From Candidatus Sumerlaeaceae bacterium (GTDB lineage Bacteria; Sumerlaeota; Sumerlaeia; Sumerlaeales; Sumerlaeaceae): a DNA stretch of 64,000 bases. The notes under the pieces were generated by a model, which was given only the letters and a program-made list of their open reading frames with translations, did no database searches and was not told the DNA's origin. How positions within the stretch are numbered: the first letter of the stretch is position 1; every line of letters begins with the position of its first letter. Of this stretch, positions 69-10,960 are shown piece by piece. The stretch is taken from contig JBMFRB010000001.1 of the NCBI GenBank assembly GCA_049968255.1, positions 288,001 to 352,000 of the forward strand, written 5' to 3'. The translations under genes and the position numbers were made by a program.

Positions 69-3000
69 ATGATGAAAGTGATGCAGAGGATTCTCGTTGG
101 ACCAAAGACTTTTTCGGCCATCTTTGCGGGACTCTGTTTTGTAAGCGTTTATGCTGCGTCGGTTCCCCCAGAGACCAAAGCGGTCGAGGCTGGCAAATCG
201 CTCCTAGCGCAAGGCGGCCCTCATGCGCAGATTTCGTATCACCGTGAAACTGGCAAGATCCGCTTTTTTGGCACCCAAACAGGAATGGGTATTTTGACTC
301 CAAGGGCACAATCGCTTGCCGGCTCTGGAGCGTCGGCTGAAGAAACCGCGCGCGCCTTCATTCAAGACTACGCTGCCGCATACGGAATTCACGACGCGCA
401 GCGTGAGCTACGCGTGATGCGTTCGCGTGCTCTGCCTGGCGGCCGGAACGTTGTGCGTTTCCAGCAACTTTACCAGGGGTTGCCAGTCATTGGCGGGGAA
501 ATCATCGTTCACCAAAATGAACGACGCGCAGTGACCGCGACCATTGGCGAGCTGCAACCGGACCTCGACGTGGATACGCAGCCGACGGTTTCCGCGGAAG
601 ACGCTGAACGAACAGCAAAAACATTGTGTGCGAAGCTTTATGGGGTTCCTGAAGGGAGCCTCGTGGCAAGCAGCCCACAGCTCTCTATCTATTCTCCTGC
701 ATTGATGGACGATAAGAAGATAGTCCGCTCCCCCGCACTCGTCTGGCAAATGGAAGTAAGCGGCTCAAGTGAGCCGCCGGTTCGAGAATACGTTTTGGTC
801 GAAGCAAAGACGGGGAGAATTGCGTTACATTTTAGCAAAATTTATCGCTCAAAGCAGAGACAAGTTTACGACTGTAACCACTCATCGGCCCTTCCCGGCA
901 CTTTGGTGCGCCAAGAAGGTCAGCCTCCGTCAAGCATTGCAGACGCAAACAGCGCCTACGACGCAACCGGAGCGACTTACGATTTCTATGCGAATGTCCT
1001 GGGGCGAGATAGCATCGATGGAGCAGGTATGGCGCTTATTTCGGCGGTTCGCTACTGCCCATCGTCGTCTGAATGCCCTTATCAAAATGCTTTCTGGGAT
1101 GGCGCAGAGATGGTCTTCGGGGACGAGATGACTGCCGACGACGTTTGCGCACACGAACTGACTCACGGCGTAACTGAACACGAGTCGGGGCTCTTTTACT
1201 ACATGCAGTCGGGCGCGATTAACGAAGCCATGTCGGATATTTTTGGGGAGTTCGTCGATCTCTCAGATGGCCTTGGCAACGATTCGCCGTCCGTGCGCTG
1301 GAAAATTGGAGAGGACCTTCCTACCTCCATTGGTGTTATCCGAGATATGGCAAATCCTCCCGACTATGGCCAACCGGACACAACGACGAACAGCTTATAT
1401 TACTGCGGGTTGTGGGACAATGGCGGAGTCCATACTAATAGCGGAATCGCGAACAAGTGTGCTTTCCTCATGACCGACGGCAGCTCTTTCAATGGATACA
1501 ACGTCGAGCCGTTGGGTTTGGCCAAGACAGCAAGGATTTGGTATGAAGTGAATTGCAACTACCTCACGAGCGCAGCAGATTATCAAGACCTGGGCGACGC
1601 GCTTGTGCAGGCGGCTCTGTCCTTGGTTGGAACAACAGTTTATGGCGGGGAAACCATTACGCTAGCCGACGTACAACAGGTGAAAAATGCAGTGGATGCT
1701 GTGGGGATGGAGATTCCGCCCGCCGACTGCCCAGCAACGGATGCTGCTATCTGCCCTGATTTCGACAGGCAGCCTTTCGATCTCTTTTACGACGATTTAG
1801 AAAATCCGAGTAAAGGGCTCTGGGCAAAGGGCTATGCAGTGGGCGGATCATATTTTTACTATCCCCAAAATCCGAACCTCTGGGGATTCGATGCAACTTA
1901 TGCCACAAGCGGACACACGAACTTTTTTGGCGCTGATGTTTCAAATAAGAGTGACTCGTGGATTGCTATGACACAGAGCGTGGCGTTGCCGACAACCGCC
2001 CCGGCAATCTACATGCATTTCAACCATGCGTATGATTTCGATCCGCCCTATTACGACGGAGGTGTCGTAGAATACAGCACTGACAACGGAATCACGTGGA
2101 ATGACGCAGGGAGTCTCATCGAGGAAAACGGTTACACGAATACCATTTCAACAAGCTTCGAAAATCCGTTAGGTGGCAGGCGAGCATTTTGTGGGAGGAG
2201 TAACGGTTACATTTCCACCCGCCTCAATCTGACACCGCTGAAGGGACAAAGCGTGCGTTTCCGTTTCCGGATGGGCACGGATACATCGGCTGGGGAGTTG
2301 GGATGGTTCATTGACGACATCCGTATCTACCTTTGTGGCTATAGGGTCGAAACGGTAAGTACGGATGCGTTGACAACCCCTGCTGGCTGGTTCGAATTCA
2401 TGCGCGTACCTCAAGGTGGGGGCGCAAGCACAGATTTTGATGATAGTGTGGGGGCTATTCGCGCATGGGTGGCCAGCGATGCCGCGCGTTATCGCATCGT
2501 CGGTTGGTTGGCCAACCGCCAGAATTGGCTTCCGTACTATTATGTGGGGCCTACCAATTTCGCGCGCGGCAAATTCTATGTCTACGCCACAGGCCAGTCC
2601 AATCCCTCGCAGCTCAACTCGATCCCGAACTTCCGGTTGCGCTTGGCGAACCGCTTCGCTGTGAATTCGATGCTCGAGGTGCTGCCGCATTCGAGCGCGA
2701 CAAGTGGCGACGAGTCGATTTCGCTCGAGTTGCGCCCTTCGACCGATCCAACGCGGCCGTCGCTCTATCGCGTGGATTTTGCACCTGTGAACGTGCCATG
2801 GCTTGAGCAGAATCCTTTTACGGAGGGCATCACGCGCGGTTTCGAGATCTACGCACTCGATCCGCAAGACAACGGCTACGTGTGCCTGGCAGAATCTTCG
2901 ATCGGTGTTTATCCAAAATCTGCTGTCTCGGTCGCGGGCTCGAACTTAATGTGGTTGGCCACGTACGCACCAACGAACAGTGACGCAGGTGATCTAAATC

Positions 3001-3704
3001 CAAACAAATCGGGCGCGACGTTGGAGAAGTTCAGCCTGCTCATGCCGAGCACGGCGGGAGAATTTCCGGCCCGAGATAACTCGGTGGCGCCGAACGTTTC
3101 TGCGGGGCCTTGGGGCGTGACCATTGACTCGACTGCCTTTGATAATCAGGGTGGTAGCCGTGTGGGGGTGGTGCAGATTGATTTCTCGCCGGATGTGGCT
3201 ACAGGGCAGCACGTGCGCATTGAACCCAATAAACAGTACATGGTGCGTTATCATGTCACCTCGACCCAGCAGTCGAGTCTCAATCCGCAGCTGCGGCTGC
3301 GAGTGCGCACCGTGCGTTTCGCCTGGACTCAAAAATATGAGGTTGGTGGAGCTTGGGCCATTGCCACACCTGAGCACTCAACTCTGGCGGCCCAAGCCTT
3401 GCCGGGCATTGGTTGCGCAAATCCGGACAAAGTCGGTGGGGAGGCGGGCGGCTGGTATACGGTGCTCGTGCATTCGCCACTAAATCTTGACATTCGGCCA
3501 GATATGGGCGGCCCCCTGTCGAGCCGCATGCCTAATCTCAGCTCGCAGCCTGGGCCAGGCGAGCCAGGGACATCGCTGCGCGACTTGAAAGTGGCTTTCG
3601 ATCTCATTGACACCATGAGCCCAAGCATCAATGCCCCACTTGAAGCCGGCAATTTCACGGTAGACCGCATCGAGGTCTTCTCATTCGACCAGATCCCAGA
3701 TTAG
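69..3704 (+). CDS. Secreted thermolysin-like (M4) zinc metalloprotease with propeptide, a beta-sandwich domain and a large shared C-terminal domain
   Basis: Signal peptide; FTP/PepSY-like propeptide (VVRFQQLYQGLPVIGGEIIVH); NAFWDG; HELTH zinc motif (~1152); third ligand NEAMSD; GGVHTNSG; then FYDDLE...WFIDDIRI domain and ~447-aa C-terminal domain. Confidence 0.92.
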   Translation: MMKVMQRILVGPKTFSAIFAGLCFVSVYAASVPPETKAVEAGKSLLAQGGPHAQISYHRETGKIRFFGTQTGMGILTPRAQSLAGSGASAEETARAFIQDYAAAYGIHDAQRELRVMRSRALPGGRNVVRFQQLYQGLPVIGGEIIVHQNERRAVTATIGELQPDLDVDTQPTVSAEDAERTAKTLCAKLYGVPEGSLVASSPQLSIYSPALMDDKKIVRSPALVWQMEVSGSSEPPVREYVLVEAKTGRIALHFSKIYRSKQRQVYDCNHSSALPGTLVRQEGQPPSSIADANSAYDATGATYDFYANVLGRDSIDGAGMALISAVRYCPSSSECPYQNAFWDGAEMVFGDEMTADDVCAHELTHGVTEHESGLFYYMQSGAINEAMSDIFGEFVDLSDGLGNDSPSVRWKIGEDLPTSIGVIRDMANPPDYGQPDTTTNSLYYCGLWDNGGVHTNSGIANKCAFLMTDGSSFNGYNVEPLGLAKTARIWYEVNCNYLTSAADYQDLGDALVQAALSLVGTTVYGGETITLADVQQVKNAVDAVGMEIPPADCPATDAAICPDFDRQPFDLFYDDLENPSKGLWAKGYAVGGSYFYYPQNPNLWGFDATYATSGHTNFFGADVSNKSDSWIAMTQSVALPTTAPAIYMHFNHAYDFDPPYYDGGVVEYSTDNGITWNDAGSLIEENGYTNTISTSFENPLGGRRAFCGRSNGYISTRLNLTPLKGQSVRFRFRMGTDTSAGELGWFIDDIRIYLCGYRVETVSTDALTTPAGWFEFMRVPQGGGASTDFDDSVGAIRAWVASDAARYRIVGWLANRQNWLPYYYVGPTNFARGKFYVYATGQSNPSQLNSIPNFRLRLANRFAVNSMLEVLPHSSATSGDESISLELRPSTDPTRPSLYRVDFAPVNVPWLEQNPFTEGITRGFEIYALDPQDNGYVCLAESSIGVYPKSAVSVAGSNLMWLATYAPTNSDAGDLNPNKSGATLEKFSLLMPSTAGEFPARDNSVAPNVSAGPWGVTIDSTAFDNQGGSRVGVVQIDFSPDVATGQHVRIEPNKQYMVRYHVTSTQQSSLNPQLRLRVRTVRFAWTQKYEVGGAWAIATPEHSTLAAQALPGIGCANPDKVGGEAGGWYTVLVHSPLNLDIRPDMGGPLSSRMPNLSSQPGPGEPGTSLRDLKVAFDLIDTMSPSINAPLEAGNFTVDRIEVFSFDQIPD

Positions 3705-4148
3705 TTCCACCGGGGTGCCTGAAGGCATGTGAAAGGACTCACCATGCCCAAGGGGATGATGCATGAACATGGGAAAAACTTCGTGGGTCCTCGCCACAAC
3801 GAGGGAGCTAATCGAGTGGCTATTATGTGAGTGGTGACTGCGTGGGAATAGTCGTCGCCTTAGGAACAAAGGCGACGGGCGCAAAGGCAACGTTGTCTTC
3901 GGACGTCGCGTGATTTGTGGGAGGGTGTGCGCGCTTTTCTTTTGACCTTGAGCGTCCCTTCTCGGCATTTAAGAACTCAAACACGATTGGGAAAAACGAC
4001 GAAGCTAGGCGGCGCCAAATGCGCGTAAGGTGAGAGTGTGAGGAACACACATCTGACGCGTCTTTGCGTATCTGCCAGAGGGGCCATGTTTAGGGATGAT
4101 CGCAAGCCCCCCGTAGCGGAAAGTTAGCCCAGAGGAGAATATCATAAC

Positions 4149-7100
4149 ATGTTAGGTGACCGAACGATTGAAAAACCAAATGCTCTTTTATTAGGGGTCC
4201 TCACGATCATTCTGGCTTCGGCGCTAGGCTGGGCCGCCCCGGATCCGGCAACCGATTGTAACCACAATGGCAAGCCTGACTCGCAGGATTTGACGACCAA
4301 CACTCGCGCTTTTAGAATTTTCTCGGACGATTTTGAGGGCGGTAAACTGGAGGATAACTGGATTGCGACGGGGCTATGGCGCATTGACAAGACGGAGTGC
4401 TTGGATGAAGTTCCGCCGACAGACCAAGATCCGCCCCCGCAGAACGACTACCGTGCTGCTTACAATCGCGACAAAGATCACTGCGACTATAACACGGGCA
4501 GCCGCAATTCCGGTGCCTTGGAGATGGCGACGTCGGTGACGATTCCGGCAGTCGGTGCTGAACTGGTTTGGTGGAACTGGGTCGAAACCGAGGACACGCG
4601 TGACCTGGATACGTGGCAAGTGCAAGTATCTGCAAACAACGGTGAAACGTGGCAAACAGTGTTTGATCACCACGGAAAAAGCGAGCCGCTGTGGACTCAA
4701 TACACGGTCTCGCTTTACGACTATCGCCAGCAGAAAATCAAAATTCGCTTTGTCTTCGACAGCCGGGATTCTTACAATAATAATTTTAAAGGATGGTTCA
4801 TTGACGACGTCGCGATCTGGGGATATGACGCTTTTAGCCTGGACTGCAACGCGAACAGCATCCCAGACGAGTGCGAGCCGGACTGCAATGCCAACGGAAT
4901 TCCTGACTCGTGCGAACTTGCTGAAAACTCGACTCTTGATTGCAACAGTAACGGAATCCTCGACGAGTGTGAGTCTGCCGATGAGATTACGACGTCTTCG
5001 GCCAAGTACTCCCCCTTCGATGTAGACCACCTGCCCGCGAGATTCACCTTCAAACCCCTTCCACCAGCTCGTGGAAAAGTGCGACTCGACCTGATCGGCT
5101 ATGGGAATTTTGGCACGGCGTACACGCATCGGATTGATGTTTATTTGAATTCTAACCTTTTGGGAAACGTCCGTATCCGAACGGGGGATAGCCCTTGCGG
5201 CTCAGGAATGACAAGCATGATTCTCGACGCTGGCCTTTTCAACTCGCTAACACGTAACAGTGACCAGTCCGCGACGTTCCGGTTAGTACCTGGCGATGAG
5301 GTGGCCCCGCGGTGCGAAAGCTCATATATCCAGATGGGGATTTCCTACCTCACACCAGACAGAGCGCTCGATTGCAATGGAAACGCTCTGCCCGACGAAT
5401 GTGACCTTGCCTCAGGAACGTCCCGCGATTGCAATGCCAACGGCATCCCTGACGAATGTGACATTGCCGATCATACGAGCGAGGACTGCAACCGAAACAG
5501 AGTGCCTGACGAATGCGACTTAGCCTCGGGGACTTCGCATGATTGCAACGCGAACGAAGTGCCTGACGAATGCGACTTAGCCTCGGGGACTTCGCATGAT
5601 TGCAACGCGAACGAAGTGCCTGACGAATGCGATGTGGCTGATCTCACTAGCCAAGACACGAACGAGGACGGAATTCCTGATGAGTGTCAGATCGAGCAAG
5701 ACGTGACACCTTGCGGAAGTGAGCTAACTCCCAGCGCGATCTGGTTTGACGATTTCGAAAATCCTGCGGCCGATCGGTGGACCACGGCCGTCTTACGGGG
5801 GACTAACACTTGGTATTACCCACCCCCACCAGAAGAACTAGATCCCTCAAGTGGGATGCTCAACGCATGGGGAGGGCGGTACACCTCGCCGAGCGATTCG
5901 GTCCTTGAAATGCGGGATTTCGTGGAAATCCCCACGACGGTGCCCTGCTATCTCTATTTTCTTCATGCGCACGATTTCGAGTATTATCCTGGAAACTACG
6001 ACGGAGGGGTGGTCGAATACATCACCGATGACCTCGGAACAACGTGGACAGACCTTGGGCCTCTGATGGACGCTAACGGATATCGAGGGAAAATAGCGTT
6101 GAATTACCAAAATCCGCTGGCAGGGCGTAACGCATTTGTTGGCTCGAGTGACGGATACATTGCTACCCGCGCAAACCTGTCATCTTTAGCAGGTAAGCGG
6201 GTGAAAATTCGTTTCCGTGTGGGGACTGACTGGAGCGGGGTGAGCAGGGGATGGTACATTGACGATGTCCGTTTCTCCGCCTGTCAGTTTGTGACGGACG
6301 AGAAGACTAAAGAGGACTTTACGCAACCGCCTCTGGGTTGGGTGGAGCTTTCACGGGTACCGAGCAGTGATGGCCTAGCGGCCACAGACTACGACAATGT
6401 GCAGGGAGCGCTGTGTGCTCGTGTGAGCTCCGATGAAAACCATTTCCGAGTCGTGGGCTGGTTTACAGATACGGCCAACCGCTTGCCATATGCCAGCGTC
6501 GGCCCAGATCACTACGTTCGGGCCAAGTTCTATGTTTATGCGACAGGCCAGAGTAATCCCGCGCAGCTCAATACGATTCCCAACTTCCGGATGCGCGTGG
6601 CGAACCGTTTTGCGGTAAACTCGATGTTGGAGGTCAACGCACACGTCAACGCTTCGCCCGGAGATGAACCTGTGACGCTAGAAGTGCGGCCCTCGACTGA
6701 CCCGACAAAGCCTTCGCTTTACCGAGTGGACTTTGATCCCGTGGATGTGCCCCAGCTCATTATTCATCCTTACACCGAGGGGATTCTTCGTGGCTTTGAA
6801 GCCTACTGCCTAGACCCTCAGGACAACGGCGCGGTTTGTTTGACGGAGTCCTCGATTGGGGTTTATCCGAAGAGTTGGGTCTCGCCTGAGAAATCTGCGT
6901 TCATGTGGCTCAAGACCTACCAAACGACACCGCCGACAGCGGGTGATTTTGCATTTTCGAACCCCGATACTACGGTGGACATTGTCTCGCTACGAATCAC
7001 GGGTGATGGTACCTTCCCCATCCGCGATTATGACATCACCCCGGGCGCATGGGCCAATGCTGACGGGCTAACCATGGATTCGACTGACTTTGACAATTAT

Positions 7101-7655
7101 ATAGACGGCTATCGTATCGGCGTTGTACAAGCTGATCTAGGCGCGGGTCCGCGTGCGCAGCGCGTGCGCATCGAAGCGGGCAAGCAGTACATGGTGCGCT
7201 TCCACGTGACTTCGACACAGCAGTCGAATCTCAACCCGCAGCTCCGCCTTCGCGTTCGCACACTTCGCTTCGGGTGGGTTCAGAAATACGAAGTCGGCGG
7301 CGCCTGGGCAATCAATACTCCTGAGCACGTAGCGCTAGCCTCGCAAGCGCTGCCAGGCATCGGTTGCAGGAACCCCGACAAGATTGGGACGGAGAACGGT
7401 GGATGGTATACAGTGCTTGTGCACTCGCCGATGAATCCTGACATTCGTCCGGATGTTGAGGGCACCTTGTGTGACAAAATGCCAAACATTTGCGCGCAGC
7501 CAGGCCCTGGCGTGGATGCAGACTCGATTCGCGATCTCAAGGTCGGTGTGGACCTTCTCGATACTCTTAGCACGAGTGTCAATAAAGACCTCGAAGCTGG
7601 AAGGTTTACAGTGGATCGAATCGAGGTCTTTTCGTTCAATACGATCCCTGACTAG
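4149..7655 (+). CDS. Secreted multidomain protein: two DDFE...IDDV beta-sandwich domains, DCNxNGxPDEC repeats, and the same C-terminal domain as 69..3704
   Basis: 1168-aa ORF; GAGGAG RBS upstream; hydrophobic signal peptide ending ALG-WA; about ten Cys/Asp repeats; C-terminal ~640 aa clearly paralogous to the upstream gene. Confidence 0.88.
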   Translation: MLGDRTIEKPNALLLGVLTIILASALGWAAPDPATDCNHNGKPDSQDLTTNTRAFRIFSDDFEGGKLEDNWIATGLWRIDKTECLDEVPPTDQDPPPQNDYRAAYNRDKDHCDYNTGSRNSGALEMATSVTIPAVGAELVWWNWVETEDTRDLDTWQVQVSANNGETWQTVFDHHGKSEPLWTQYTVSLYDYRQQKIKIRFVFDSRDSYNNNFKGWFIDDVAIWGYDAFSLDCNANSIPDECEPDCNANGIPDSCELAENSTLDCNSNGILDECESADEITTSSAKYSPFDVDHLPARFTFKPLPPARGKVRLDLIGYGNFGTAYTHRIDVYLNSNLLGNVRIRTGDSPCGSGMTSMILDAGLFNSLTRNSDQSATFRLVPGDEVAPRCESSYIQMGISYLTPDRALDCNGNALPDECDLASGTSRDCNANGIPDECDIADHTSEDCNRNRVPDECDLASGTSHDCNANEVPDECDLASGTSHDCNANEVPDECDVADLTSQDTNEDGIPDECQIEQDVTPCGSELTPSAIWFDDFENPAADRWTTAVLRGTNTWYYPPPPEELDPSSGMLNAWGGRYTSPSDSVLEMRDFVEIPTTVPCYLYFLHAHDFEYYPGNYDGGVVEYITDDLGTTWTDLGPLMDANGYRGKIALNYQNPLAGRNAFVGSSDGYIATRANLSSLAGKRVKIRFRVGTDWSGVSRGWYIDDVRFSACQFVTDEKTKEDFTQPPLGWVELSRVPSSDGLAATDYDNVQGALCARVSSDENHFRVVGWFTDTANRLPYASVGPDHYVRAKFYVYATGQSNPAQLNTIPNFRMRVANRFAVNSMLEVNAHVNASPGDEPVTLEVRPSTDPTKPSLYRVDFDPVDVPQLIIHPYTEGILRGFEAYCLDPQDNGAVCLTESSIGVYPKSWVSPEKSAFMWLKTYQTTPPTAGDFAFSNPDTTVDIVSLRITGDGTFPIRDYDITPGAWANADGLTMDSTDFDNYIDGYRIGVVQADLGAGPRAQRVRIEAGKQYMVRFHVTSTQQSNLNPQLRLRVRTLRFGWVQKYEVGGAWAINTPEHVALASQALPGIGCRNPDKIGTENGGWYTVLVHSPMNPDIRPDVEGTLCDKMPNICAQPGPGVDADSIRDLKVGVDLLDTLSTSVNKDLEAGRFTVDRIEVFSFNTIPD
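5501..5632 (+). repeat. Exact in-frame 57-bp tandem repeat (about 2.3 copies) encoding VPDECDLASGTSHDCNANE
   Basis: AGTGCCTGACGAATGCGA recurs at 5501, 5558 and 5615 with identical intervening sequence. Confidence 0.95.
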
Positions 7656-7699: not shown

Positions 7700-7733
7700 A
7701 GGGCTACTTTCCCAAAGGGAAGTAGCCCTTTTC
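7700..7733 (+). terminator. Rho-independent terminator after the second secreted-protein gene
   Basis: AGGGCTACTT(T)CCC-AAA-GGGAAGTAGCCCT hairpin followed by TTTT. Confidence 0.8.
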
Positions 7734-8405: not shown

Positions 8406-9431
8406 ATGCAACTGAATGTCGCCATTATGGGTGCTACAGGTGCGGTAGGGCAGGAAATGCTCCGCACGCTCGAGATGCGCCATTTTCCGTGCACTTCGCT
8501 GAAGCTGCTGGCCAGCGAACGCTCGGTGGGGAAAAAATTTCCCTTTAGGGGACGGTTGATTCCGGTCGAGAAGCTAACGCCGGAGAGCTTCAATGGTGTG
8601 GATTTGGTGCTCGCTTCGGCTGGTGCTTCTGTTTCTCGCGAATTTGTGCCCCACGCCGTGAAGGCCGGCGCCGTGGTCGTAGATAACACAAGTGCCTTCC
8701 GCATGGAGCCTGATATTCCCCTCGTCGTGCCCGAGGTGAACGCGTCCGCCTTGGAAAAGCATAAGGGCATTATCGCGAATCCTAACTGCTCGACCGCACA
8801 GATGGTGGTGGCGATTGCACCGATTCATCGTGCCGTGGGCATCAAGCGCCTCGTGATTGCGACATATCAGAGCGTAAGCGGTACCGGCCAAAAAGCCATC
8901 GATGAGTGCCTGCGCCAAACAAGGGAACTGCTGGACGGCCAGAGCAATGTGGAATGCAAAGTTTATCCGCATCGCATTGCTTTCAACGTCCTGCCGCACA
9001 TTGACGTCTTTCTCGAGAACGGCTACACTAAAGAGGAAATGAAGATGGTAAATGAGACGCGAAAGATTCTCGAGGACCAGACCATTGCTATCACAGCCAC
9101 GACGGTACGAGTACCGGTCCTGCGAGGTCACAGCGAGGCAGTGAACGTTGAGACTCACAAGAAGATCTCGGCTGCTGAAGTGCGCGAACTTCTCGCAAAA
9201 GCGCCGGGCGTGGTCGTTGTGGACGATCCAAAAAATTGCGATTATCCGACCCCAATCTACTCCGAGGGACGCGACGAAACTTACGTTGGGCGCATCCGCG
9301 AAGACATTTCGATTCCCAATGGCATCGAGATGTGGATTGTAAGCGACAACTTACGTAAGGGCGCAGCTTTGAACGCTGTACAGATTGCCGAAGAACTTTT
9401 GGCGCGGAAACTGCTTCGAGCTGCTCTATAA
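8406..9431 (+). CDS. asd: Aspartate-semialdehyde dehydrogenase
   Basis: GATGAVG, IIANPNCST catalytic Cys, YQSVSG, RVPV..GHS, DNLRKGAALNAVQIAE; ATG 8406 preferred over 8388 because of the upstream purine-rich RBS. Confidence 0.97.
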   Translation: MQLNVAIMGATGAVGQEMLRTLEMRHFPCTSLKLLASERSVGKKFPFRGRLIPVEKLTPESFNGVDLVLASAGASVSREFVPHAVKAGAVVVDNTSAFRMEPDIPLVVPEVNASALEKHKGIIANPNCSTAQMVVAIAPIHRAVGIKRLVIATYQSVSGTGQKAIDECLRQTRELLDGQSNVECKVYPHRIAFNVLPHIDVFLENGYTKEEMKMVNETRKILEDQTIAITATTVRVPVLRGHSEAVNVETHKKISAAEVRELLAKAPGVVVVDDPKNCDYPTPIYSEGRDETYVGRIREDISIPNGIEMWIVSDNLRKGAALNAVQIAEELLARKLLRAAL

Positions 9432-9459
9432 ATAGTCCTAGCCGCAACGAGAAGAACGA

Positions 9460-9491
9460 TGAGGCGGAACCACGGGTGTGGTTCCGCCTCA
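9460..9491. terminator. Perfect 14-bp hairpin between convergent asd and rplA, probably a bidirectional terminator
   Basis: TGAGGCGGAACCAC-GGGT-GTGGTTCCGCCTCA. Confidence 0.7.
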
Positions 9492-9554
9492 AGTGTTTTC
9501 TCACCGCTAGCGTGAAGCCTCAAAGCGTCCTGAAAAGGCGCCTGCAAGCACTGG

Positions 9555-10253
9555 TTACTTGGCGACGTTGGGTGTGTAGGCGACTTTGATTCCCGGGCTC
9601 ATTGTCGAGCTTAGGGTGATGCTACGCATGTACGTCCCTTTGGCTGCCGCTGGGCGAGCCTTAGCAACAGCGTCCAAGACGGCCAAAGCATTTTCTACCA
9701 ACTGGTCATTCGAAAACTGAAGTTTGCCGATTGGCACATGAATATTTCCCGTCTTGTCCACACGAAATTCGACCTTTCCGGCTTTGATGTCCTGAATCGC
9801 TTTAGCCACATCCATGGTCACGGTTCCGGTCTTGGGGTTCGGCATCAGGCCGCGCGGCCCAAGGATTTTGCCGAGCTTACCGACTTCGCGCATCATATCC
9901 GGCGTAGCAATGGCCGCATCGAAATCAGTGAAACCGCCAGCCACCTTCGCCACGAGGTCTTCCGCCCCGACGATTTCGGCTCCAGCCGCTTCGGCTTCCG
10001 TCGCCTTATCGCCTTTGGCGAAGACAGCCACGCGCACGGTCTTGCCGGTGCCATGAGGAAGCGTTACGGTGCCGCGCACCTGCTGATCAGCATGACGTGG
10101 GTCCACGCCAAGTTTGAGGTCGAGATTGACAGTTTCGTTGAACTTGGCGTAAGCAATCTTCTTCAGAGTGTCGACCGCTTCAGGTAGGGAATAAACCTTC
10201 TTTTGGTCGTACTTCTCAAGCGCTGCGCGATACTTTTTGCCGTGCTTTGGCAT
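9555..10253 (-). CDS. rplA: 50S ribosomal protein L1 (uL1)
   Basis: [52 protein letters not shown]; AAGGAG RBS. Confidence 0.98.
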
Positions 10254-10273
10254 GAGTTTTTCTCCTTATCTTT

Positions 10274-10309
10274 GTGGTCGGTAGCGGCGATCGAGCGATC
10301 GCCTCCCAC
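10274..10309 (-). promoter_or_regulatory. Putative L1-binding autoregulatory mRNA element
   Basis: Minus strand GTGGGAG-GCGATCG-CT-CGATCGC-CGCTACCG-ACCAC just upstream of the rplA RBS; resembles the GUGGGAG...ACCAC L1 site that normally precedes rplA. Confidence 0.7.
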
Positions 10310-10369
10310 GCGCTTTCAGCCAGAAGCCACAAAGCGCCAGGACAAGGTACGCCGTCGGGGCGAGTTCAT

Positions 10370-10960
10370 TCACGAACGTCCTGCTTGTTTTGAGGCGCGT
10401 TTCCGCGAGAACAGGCGCGAAAGAAACATCTGGATGGCAAGAGAAGCAAGCAAAAGCGCGACGAACGACCACGGCAGCATGTCGTGGAGCGGAGCAAAGC
10501 CAGCGCAGAGAAATGTTGCCCCAACAAAGGCCGTGACGACAATGGCGAGAGTGCGTCTAATCCAGAGTGCACCCCCTGCTCCGGCAGCCCCCACCACAAC
10601 CAAGATGATAGCTATTTGCGGCGTCAGCGTATAGGGTTGTCCTCCTAATCCTGCATGCATTTGCAAAATGAGTCGCGCTACGAGGATGCCAAACAAAAAG
10701 CCTACCAATGCGAGGAGAAAGGAATTGAGCGCCCGGATGAAAAAGACACCACCGATCGCGCCCATAAGCGAACAGCCAAGCTGGAGAAGTGCAGCCGCGC
10801 CGGCCTCCATTCCCAGGGCTAGCGAAAAGGCCACCCCAAAGACAAAGCCCAACCCAAGACCAAAAACTGCACCAATCAAGCGCGAGCCTAACCAAAGCGC
10901 AACCCATCCGCCGAAACAAAGAATTACGCCGAAAGTGAGTAAAAGTGTGTCGGCACTCAT
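10370..10960 (-). CDS. Gly-rich multi-pass membrane protein (DUF4203/TMEM198-like)
   Basis: About 6-7 hydrophobic helices; LCFGG motif; TAFVGA near the C-terminus; basic tail; GAGG RBS. Confidence 0.7.
   Translation of the reverse strand: MSADTLLLTFGVILCFGGWVALWLGSRLIGAVFGLGLGFVFGVAFSLALGMEAGAAALLQLGCSLMGAIGGVFFIRALNSFLLALVGFLFGILVARLILQMHAGLGGQPYTLTPQIAIILVVVGAAGAGGALWIRRTLAIVVTAFVGATFLCAGFAPLHDMLPWSFVALLLASLAIQMFLSRLFSRKRASKQAGRS

Follow-up and report, generated by a model that had tools for sequence, protein, structure and literature searches.

Constant C-terminal modules of secreted-protein families and modules of the carbohydrate-binding module (CBM) type are both known kinds. The C-terminal domains (CTDs) of the type IX secretion system (T9SS) are single Ig-like domains of ~70–100 aa (PF18962 or TIGR04183) that are cleaved by PorU. 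In Clostridioides difficile, the available text of PMC4973711 describes tandem CWB2 motifs of the Cwp proteins that bind the polymer PSII and so tie the S-layer protein and its paralogues to it. For Clostridium thermocellum, the accessible parts of PMC10328401 and PMC6852018 describe RsgI anti-sigma factors that sense polysaccharide. Here, we analyzed a 447-aa C-terminal module shared by two neighbouring open reading frames, ORF1 and ORF2, in a stretch of 64,000 nucleotides ("the window") from a Candidatus Sumerlaeaceae bacterium of the phylum Sumerlaeota (contig JBMFRB010000001.1, positions 288,001 to 352,000). The source genome (G000; 95.75% complete) amounts to 3.12 Mb on 31 contigs. The module closes many otherwise unrelated proteins, and we tentatively read it as a glycan-binding address that would keep exported proteins attached to the surface of the cell itself.

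A Shared C-Terminal Module in Two Neighbouring Genes

BLASTP aligned ORF1 and ORF2 over 649 aa at 56% identity (E = 0). The 447-aa module itself (2361–3701 versus 6312–7652) aligned over 445 codons, with 63% amino-acid and 61% nucleotide identity. Identical bases were found at 50 of 155 four-fold sites, the proportion of synonymous differences (pS) was 0.77, which is saturated, and nonsynonymous divergence (dN) was 0.33. The two module copies are therefore old and have been kept by protein-level selection. The features of the locus are as follows.

69–3704, + strand: ORF1, 1211 aa, with a signal-like N-terminus, an FTP propeptide motif, an M4 metalloprotease (thermolysin type), a MAM-like domain and the C-terminal module
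1773–2342, + strand: ORF1 InhA-like MAM / jelly-roll domain, aa 569–758, PF20773 at 25.9 bits, NF038112 region, with a counterpart in ORF2
2361–2930, + strand: predicted jelly-roll A of the ORF1 module, aa 765–954, model residues 1–190
2931–3701, + strand: predicted jelly-roll B of the ORF1 module with insertions, aa 955–1211, protein end ...FTVDRIEVFSFDQIPD
4149–7655, + strand: ORF2, 1168 aa, with a signal-like N-terminus, a weak choice-of-anchor-J/MAM-like region, DCNxNGxPDEC repeats, a MAM-like domain and the C-terminal module
5730–6293, + strand: ORF2 InhA-like MAM domain, aa 528–715, PF20773 at 30.4 bits, above the cut-off
6312–7652, + strand: ORF2 C-terminal module, aa 722–1168, collinear with the ORF1 module, with the A/B boundary near 6881/6882
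7700–7729, + strand: terminator-like hairpin of 13 pairs and a T run, 3' of ORF2

A first-pass annotation made from the letters of the window had already called a 447-aa C-terminal domain common to both genes and conserved at the protein level, and both calls agree with these values. The blocks common to the two proteins were seen in BLASTP (KFYVYATGQSNP, RPSTDPT.PSLYRVDF, LDPQDNG, QKYEVGGAWAI, GGWYTVLVHSP and FTVDRIEVFSF..IPD-stop). The same annotation held the N-termini to be unrelated, which is right for the first ~520–560 residues and wrong for the next ~200 aa, as the similarity reaches that far upstream of the module, across the InhA-like MAM domain. ORF2 passes the PF20773 cut-off of 26.9 bits and ORF1 lies just below it, and the two MAM domains align at 45–48% identity. 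The proposed domain boundary at 2361/6312 was nevertheless well placed, since the part common to the five other paralogues in the genome is the ~440-aa module only.

Predicted Fold of the Module

The module matched no Pfam or NCBIfam family, and neither ORF1 nor ORF2 matched CBM_4_9 at E ≤ 0.1. An alignment and profile built from 24 copies of the module in its form in the window's family, hereafter the long type, is referred to as A1; the A1 profile gave no match to PDB sequences at E ≤ 10. The AlphaFold2 model of A1 (pLDDT 90.9, pTM 0.91) consists of beta-sandwiches at residues 1–190 and 191–447, that is, a predicted jelly-roll A of ~190 aa and a jelly-roll B of ~257 aa that includes ~90 aa of insertions. 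Half A is homologous to half B (91.5% by hhalign, E 8.7e-7), so the module arose through internal duplication. Residues invariant among the aligned copies include R92, Y136, D139, R286, Y293 and Y366.

Structural matches were obtained by alignment-free search (VIA) and are given as Z scores. Half B best matched an alginate-binding CBM (8zqf; Z 10.3, rmsd 3.4, 167 aligned) and 4qpw (Z 9.2), with further matches to CBM16, CBM61, CBM86, CBM70 and the hyaluronan-binding module 4d0q. Half A matched 6a8x (Z 8.9), CBM4-2 (4bj0, Z 7.3), CBM15, MAM and ERGIC-53. The module also matched 2zew (Z 8.5), and CBM22 was among the CBM families matched. For the model of a 638-aa carrier of the module, the core protein described below (pLDDT 84.5), half A reached Z 11.3 with 6a8x and Z 9.8 with 4bj0, and 57 chains stood at Z ≥ 8, nearly all of them CBMs, lectins or glycoside hydrolase (GH) family GH16. 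Foldseek against the PDB returned GH101, the C-terminal region of Cry protoxin, tandem CBM22 and SGBP-B in multi-domain alignments with TM-scores of 0.2–0.25, which were used as fold-class support only. Scores in the ESM Atlas were ≤0.90, under the recognition mark, with CBM_4_9, GalBD_like and CBM27 as weak leads.

On the basis of the AlphaFold2 model and the structural search, the module is assigned to the CBM-type beta-jelly-rolls (CBM4/9/16/22 fold class). The domain is thus unrecognised at the sequence level, as first described, and its predicted fold, once taken to stand apart from known kinds, is a tandem of CBM-type jelly-rolls instead. CBM-type glycan binding would be the most economical reading of this fold and architecture.

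Distribution and Position of the Long-Type Module

The source genome carries seven long-type copies, with 0–10 aa between module and stop codon in 7/7. An A1 profile search of 1.84 billion protein representatives returned 335 clusters at E ≤ 0.001, 276 of them at E ≤ 1e-30. We examined 216 proteins, made up of 113 matches and the new ones among the best 150 of the 335 clusters. The module was the last domain in 216/216, with a tail of ≤15 aa in 214 and of 17–21 aa in two. The sole non-terminal copy found was the inner module of P0114, which is of the core type and whose 1092 aa include two full long-type modules in tandem (203–644 and 653–1088). Within the first 50 residues, 148/185 carriers had a hydrophobic peak, versus 507/1454 control ORFs, by a crude heuristic that judges signal peptides by hydrophobicity alone (sample with a Met start and ≥60 aa ahead of the module). 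Many of the carriers missing this peak look like truncated gene calls.

Within the phylum, 75 genomes were searched with the A1 profile; families are given working codes, f1 being the window's own (Sumerlaeaceae) and f2, f9, f10, f12, f14 and f15 other Sumerlaeota families. The long type was found at full length in f1 only, in 13/13 genomes including the source, and a search with a single protein gave full-length matches in 12/12 f1 relatives. Copy numbers across the 13 f1 genomes were 7, 7, 6, 8, 1, 10, 1, 2, 1, 15, 16, 2 and 7. Marginal partial matches occurred in 7/62 genomes outside f1 (E 5e-6 to 1e-3). The first-pass annotation had expected a module reused on many proteins, always C-terminal, with signal peptides and lineage-restricted. 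Seven genome copies and 335 clusters with unrelated passengers (the protein parts ahead of the module), a terminal place broken once in P0114, hydrophobic starts by the crude measure above, and full-length occurrence in f1 alone bear these expectations out.

Within f1, module identity is 85% and 72% to orthologues, 63% to ORF2 and 41–53% to other paralogues. Short frames of 66–90 aa that hold the last 45–63 module residues were also found (G002:C17:99349-99537, G004:C49:3802-3963 and G005:C129:69903-70040) and probably derive from copies that decayed or were rearranged.

Short-Type Modules in Other Sumerlaeota Families

An orthologue of ORF1 in f12, with 53% identity across aa 53–757, has M4 and MAM domains and then a Pro/Thr linker that leads into one C-terminal domain of 165 aa. 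This domain passes CBM_4_9 (PF02018) at 29.3 bits versus a cut-off of 25.9. Short domains of this type (~160 aa) were matched in 40/75 genomes, namely 39/62 outside f1 and 1/13 within it, the latter marginal. There were at least 44–45 matches in each of six f12/f2 genomes and 6–42 in f14, f15 and parts of f9, and none in the seven f10 genomes (0/7). In all 31 fetched ORFs, which were hand-picked and biased toward tandem pairs (21 tandem, 10 single), the short domain ended 0–8 aa from the stop codon.

When 20 short tandem pairs were compared with Pfam, 0/20 matched at E ≤ 0.01, CBM_4_9 included, and one of the 20 showed a weak match to NCBIfam choice_anch_C. The short pairs aligned collinearly with the long module (hhalign 96.4%, E 1.3e-9, 324 columns; in a second run 96.3%, E 1.8e-9, 239 columns). 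Consequently, Sumerlaeaceae carry an enlarged and diverged version of a C-terminal tandem module that is phylum-wide.

Passenger orthologues were compared across the two module types. Between long-type and short-type carriers they shared 52% (M4 + MAM, 740 aa), 43% (890 aa) and 56% identity (228 aa), and GHL10 passenger orthologues 31–33%. The modules of these same proteins gave no BLASTP match better than E 0.007. Going by these sequences, module type goes with the host family while passengers stay conserved. The long-type copies have derived insertions in common, which, together with the conserved passengers, indicates that one diverged module either spread across many f1 passengers or took the place of their earlier modules. 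As the long type is found at full length in f1 only, the short type lies outside f1 but for one marginal match, and passengers remain conserved while their modules diverge, a common lineage-specific partner of the module is suggested.

In f10, a family without long- or short-type module, an M4 homologue (L036, 668..3547, genome G021) carries a different C-terminal extension of ~400 aa without a Pfam match, which may be another lineage-specific terminal region.

Passenger Proteins

Two of the source genome's seven passengers belong to the window, namely the M4 protease and the Cys/Asp-repeat protein. The others are a DUF11 protein truncated at a contig end, a beta-propeller protein, two proteins that include fn3 (amidase_3 + Golvesin_C + fn3 + FlaA-like, and GHL10 + fn3) and the 638-aa protein, whose N-domain is unassigned. 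Among the 113 module proteins, ~20 Pfam-defined passenger types were counted. GH43, subtilisin-like, formylglycine-generating-enzyme-like, SBBP, DUF11, family-10 glycosylhydrolase and fn3 passengers were confirmed by source names; the names of some other accessions in this count are assumed. Passengers in f12 include FG-GAP, M6, GEVED and CHRD. Judged from such domain assignments, passengers appear to be mostly of surface-protein type, with carbohydrate-active enzymes (CAZymes) a minority.

Three metagenomic proteins of 746–786 aa (P0075, P0148 and P0215) are single chains in which an ECF (extracytoplasmic function) sigma-70 factor, with its regions 2 and 4, precedes a hydrophobic segment that is followed by the module at the C-terminus. 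These fusions make up 3/216 of the proteins examined and fall into three clusters with <50% identity.

The main rival of the surface-address reading bears on these passengers. The module could be an ordinary CBM tandem that ties secreted proteins to an abundant environmental polysaccharide or to necromass, with the sigma fusions sensing the same sugar, an explanation we consider rather doubtful. Passengers of the GH43, GHL10, beta-helix and sialidase-like types fit it, but most passengers are not CAZymes, and one module family sits on enzymes of unrelated specificities. The genome's own GH18 chitinases go without the module; its GH18 matches (two above the cut-off, one weak) include none at a module locus, which argues against a chitin-targeting role. 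The CBM fold, the CBM_4_9 match in the f12 relative and the Pro/Thr linkers ahead of the short type agree with targeting of a substrate. Substrate CBMs, however, sit at varied positions in proteins, with which the strict C-terminal place contrasts; the module is never N-terminal or internal save in one double-module protein. Nor would a family-specific module on conserved passengers be expected for a universal substrate. The fusions of ECF sigma factor, membrane segment and module parallel RsgI as described in the available parts of PMC10328401 and PMC6852018, and the phylum is reported, in the accessible part of PMC9765126, to be rich in CAZymes; both favor a substrate.

The Core Protein

The 638-aa core protein of the source genome consists of a signal peptide, an N-domain of ~170 aa and the module. 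Its orthologues across f1 are 630–700 aa long and include genera in which the core protein is the sole module carrier; it accounts for 24/216 of the proteins examined. The core N-domain was found in 37/75 phylum genomes in frames of ~510–695 aa. It had no Pfam match, and the jelly-rolls dominated the fold search with the whole protein. In f2 and f12, the core N-domain is followed by a short tandem pair. The f2 core protein matches both hidden Markov models (HMMs), the long type at E 3.5e-13 and the short type at 3e-46, and is thus a direct bridge between the two forms. The module was likely ancestral in the core protein and spread from there to other passengers. Here one module is thus carried both by a conserved core protein and by numerous paralogues whose other domains vary, which is one of the two features that define CWB2/SLH-like anchoring, the other being the binding of a cell-envelope polymer.

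A further explanation starts from this protein. The module might bind the core protein or itself and so build passengers into a surface layer, in the manner of cohesin–dockerin pairs or S-layers. The core protein does have the module in common with all carriers, module type is family-specific, and one lattice-forming protein was matched (8wqp, Z 8.2), albeit among many CBMs. The usual partners of the fold are sugars, and no evidence of oligomers was obtained. Homodimer prediction for the module gave a score of 0.00 and no answer, which speaks neither for nor against docking. The codon bias of the core gene is moderate (effective number of codons, ENC, 48.0; 17th percentile of 1647 ORFs). Taken together, we find such docking improbable.

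In 3/4 loci examined, the core gene has one or two genes for B12-binding radical SAM proteins downstream on the same strand (genera g1, g5 and g8; L031, G000:C1:486000-502000, at 3059-6901 and 9239-10405, and also L032 and L033). G000 additionally has a radical SAM/SPASM gene upstream of the core gene on the opposite strand, and single loci have FtsH, Wzt or MBOAT close by. Across the four loci, neither an envelope-glycan operon nor a secretion operon was consistently present near the core gene.

Cell Envelope and Export

The source genome encodes BamA, LpxC and three secretins, which indicate a diderm cell with lipopolysaccharide (LPS). SLH (PF00395) had no match in this genome, nor in ORF1 or ORF2, and did match in four control genomes. 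PF18962 and SprA_N (PF14349) had no match in the source genome, but none in 14 control genomes either; Por_Secre_tail had no match on ORF1 or ORF2. A T9SS C-terminal sorting domain was rejected, the module being 447 aa long, made of two predicted jelly-rolls and without a Por_Secre_tail match. An autotransporter or outer-membrane barrel C-terminus was likewise rejected: the model shows two soluble sandwiches, and module proteins end ...PD or ...DD.

These observations also bear on the explanation that the module is an export or sorting signal, read by an outer-membrane machine (type II or undescribed) and perhaps removed later, as with T9SS or pre-peptidase C-terminal domains. The strict C-terminal position, the large cargo sets of some families (dozens of proteins in a genome), the lineage-specific module type and a diderm envelope with three secretins are all in keeping with such a signal. 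At 330–450 aa of folded lectin-like domains, however, the module far exceeds known C-terminal signals in size, and no dedicated machinery was identified. One protein bears two modules in tandem, and membrane-tethered sigma fusions would make no sense as cargo. An export signal therefore strikes us as a poor candidate.

A Possible Address for the Cell's Own Surface

As we would reconstruct it, Sumerlaeota attach a terminal tandem module of the CBM4/9 type to varied Sec-exported passengers, among them proteases, an amidase, glycosidase-like proteins and adhesin-type repeats. In the window's family, this is the enlarged and strongly diverged form; in other families, one or two ~160-aa domains after a Pro/Thr linker. 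The module itself would be non-catalytic and lectin-like and bind a glycan, most probably a polymer that the cell bears on its own exterior and that is specific to the lineage, such as an LPS O-chain, a capsule or a similar layer. Exported proteins bound to that glycan would stay displayed on the cell, by analogy with the tandem CWB2 or SLH modules common to S-layer and cell-wall proteins of Firmicutes. The lectin fold, the terminal position, the unrelated passengers, the core protein and the family-specific module type together point to a constant address module with a partner belonging to the cell, and the lectin-type fold makes an envelope glycan the most probable partner. Even so, we favor this reading with less than even confidence.

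Several points weigh against it. Z scores of 8–11 reflect a common fold, and a fold is no proof of function; what we infer beyond the fold is that a glycan is bound, which ligand this is and that the carriers stay attached to the cell. Some passengers are of glycosidase type (GH43, GHL10, sialidase-like and beta-helix). The sigma fusions would put the module in the diderm periplasm as a sensor, which fits the sensing of a substrate sugar at least equally. Modules follow orthologous groups, not genomes, so there is no ongoing homogenization. The core as a very highly expressed S-layer protein was rejected, given its only moderate codon bias. Electrostatic binding to LPS via a basic domain was rejected as well, since the modules are acidic (median isoelectric point 5.1 for the long type and 4.1 for the short type), which makes plain electrostatic attachment to anionic LPS unlikely.

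Extending the surface-address reading, Sumerlaeota might possess a surface-display system of their own, in which a universal, lectin-like tandem tag at the C-terminus ties dozens of exported proteins to a lineage-specific envelope glycan or receptor. The core protein would be its founder, tag and receptor would co-evolve with a family-wide switch of type, and tag-fused sigma factors would monitor the same ligand. We offer this as speculation that is rather unlikely to hold in full.

Other Features of the Two Genes

A hydrophobic, signal-like stretch opens both ORF1 and ORF2, and both thermolysin (M4) domains were matched in ORF1 in the Pfam/NCBIfam scan. In ORF2, arrays of ~20-aa DCNxNGxPDEC(D/E) repeats occupy window positions 4821-4976 and 5391-5726; nothing in Pfam or NCBIfam matched these repeats at E ≤ 0.1. 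The same Cys/Asp motif appears as DCNHNGKPD at the start of the mature ORF2 protein. Within ORF2, window positions 5501-5632 hold a 57-bp tandem repeat of 2.3 copies with 100% matches, a duplicated Cys/Asp unit (...VPDECDLASGTSHDCNANE...) that represents recent growth of the repeat array. The adjacency and order of the gene pair, M4 protease followed by Cys/Asp-repeat protein, are kept in a second species of the genus (G002:C13) and in another genus (G006:C1). Among public sequencing runs, no RNA dataset was listed; one DNA dataset, a hot springs metagenome, had a word share of 0.33.

Relevance to Sumerlaeota

Sumerlaeota are widespread and uncultured, and we found no account of how their exported proteins are organized in the literature searched. 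Apart from supplementary domain tables, no description of the module was found in the Sumerlaeota/BRC1 literature, including the accessible parts of PMC8092238 and PMC9765126. The module offers a sequence-only marker for surface or secreted proteins across the phylum. Annotation would gain from a family model, as 335 long-type clusters and 20 short pairs are without a Pfam/NCBIfam family. ORF1 aa 765–1211 and the ~640-aa core protein are defined candidates for a ligand search, and the family-wide switch of module type over conserved passengers bears on the evolution of anchoring and sorting systems.

Comparison with Known Systems

The closest fold relatives are the CBM4/9/16/22 modules (PF02018; 4bj0, 2zew and 4xup), whose jelly-roll is like that predicted here at Z 7–10. 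The tandem CBM22 structure 4xup has the same tandem layout as the Sumerlaeota module, and the ...D.I.V pattern in the last strand of CBM4/9-type modules also occurs in it. Unlike members of CBM_4_9, the window's module misses the family HMM, is always last, has mostly non-CAZyme passengers and carries ~90-aa insertions in half B.

RsgI, with its C-terminal CBM or PA14 sensors, resembles the sigma fusions in that a module of sugar-binding type, as found on secreted proteins, is membrane-tethered and coupled to an alternative sigma factor. The fusions differ in that the ECF sigma factor itself is part of the single chain and the host is diderm. With the T9SS CTDs of Bacteroidota, the module shares the form of a phylum-restricted C-terminal beta-sandwich on dozens of unrelated secreted proteins, whereas its size and make-up, 160–450 aa of predicted CBM-type jelly-rolls, set it apart.

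In arrangement, the module is most like CWB2 and SLH, where a constant multi-domain module is likewise found on a conserved surface protein and on variable paralogues (proteases, amidases and adhesins). The fold and sequence are unrelated, however, the organisms concerned are monoderm or SLH-using, and the binding of a polymer in Sumerlaeota is drawn by analogy. If the surface-display system outlined above were real, it would be a counterpart of anchoring by T9SS and anionic LPS (A-LPS) or by CWB2/SLH in a diderm phylum without cultured members.

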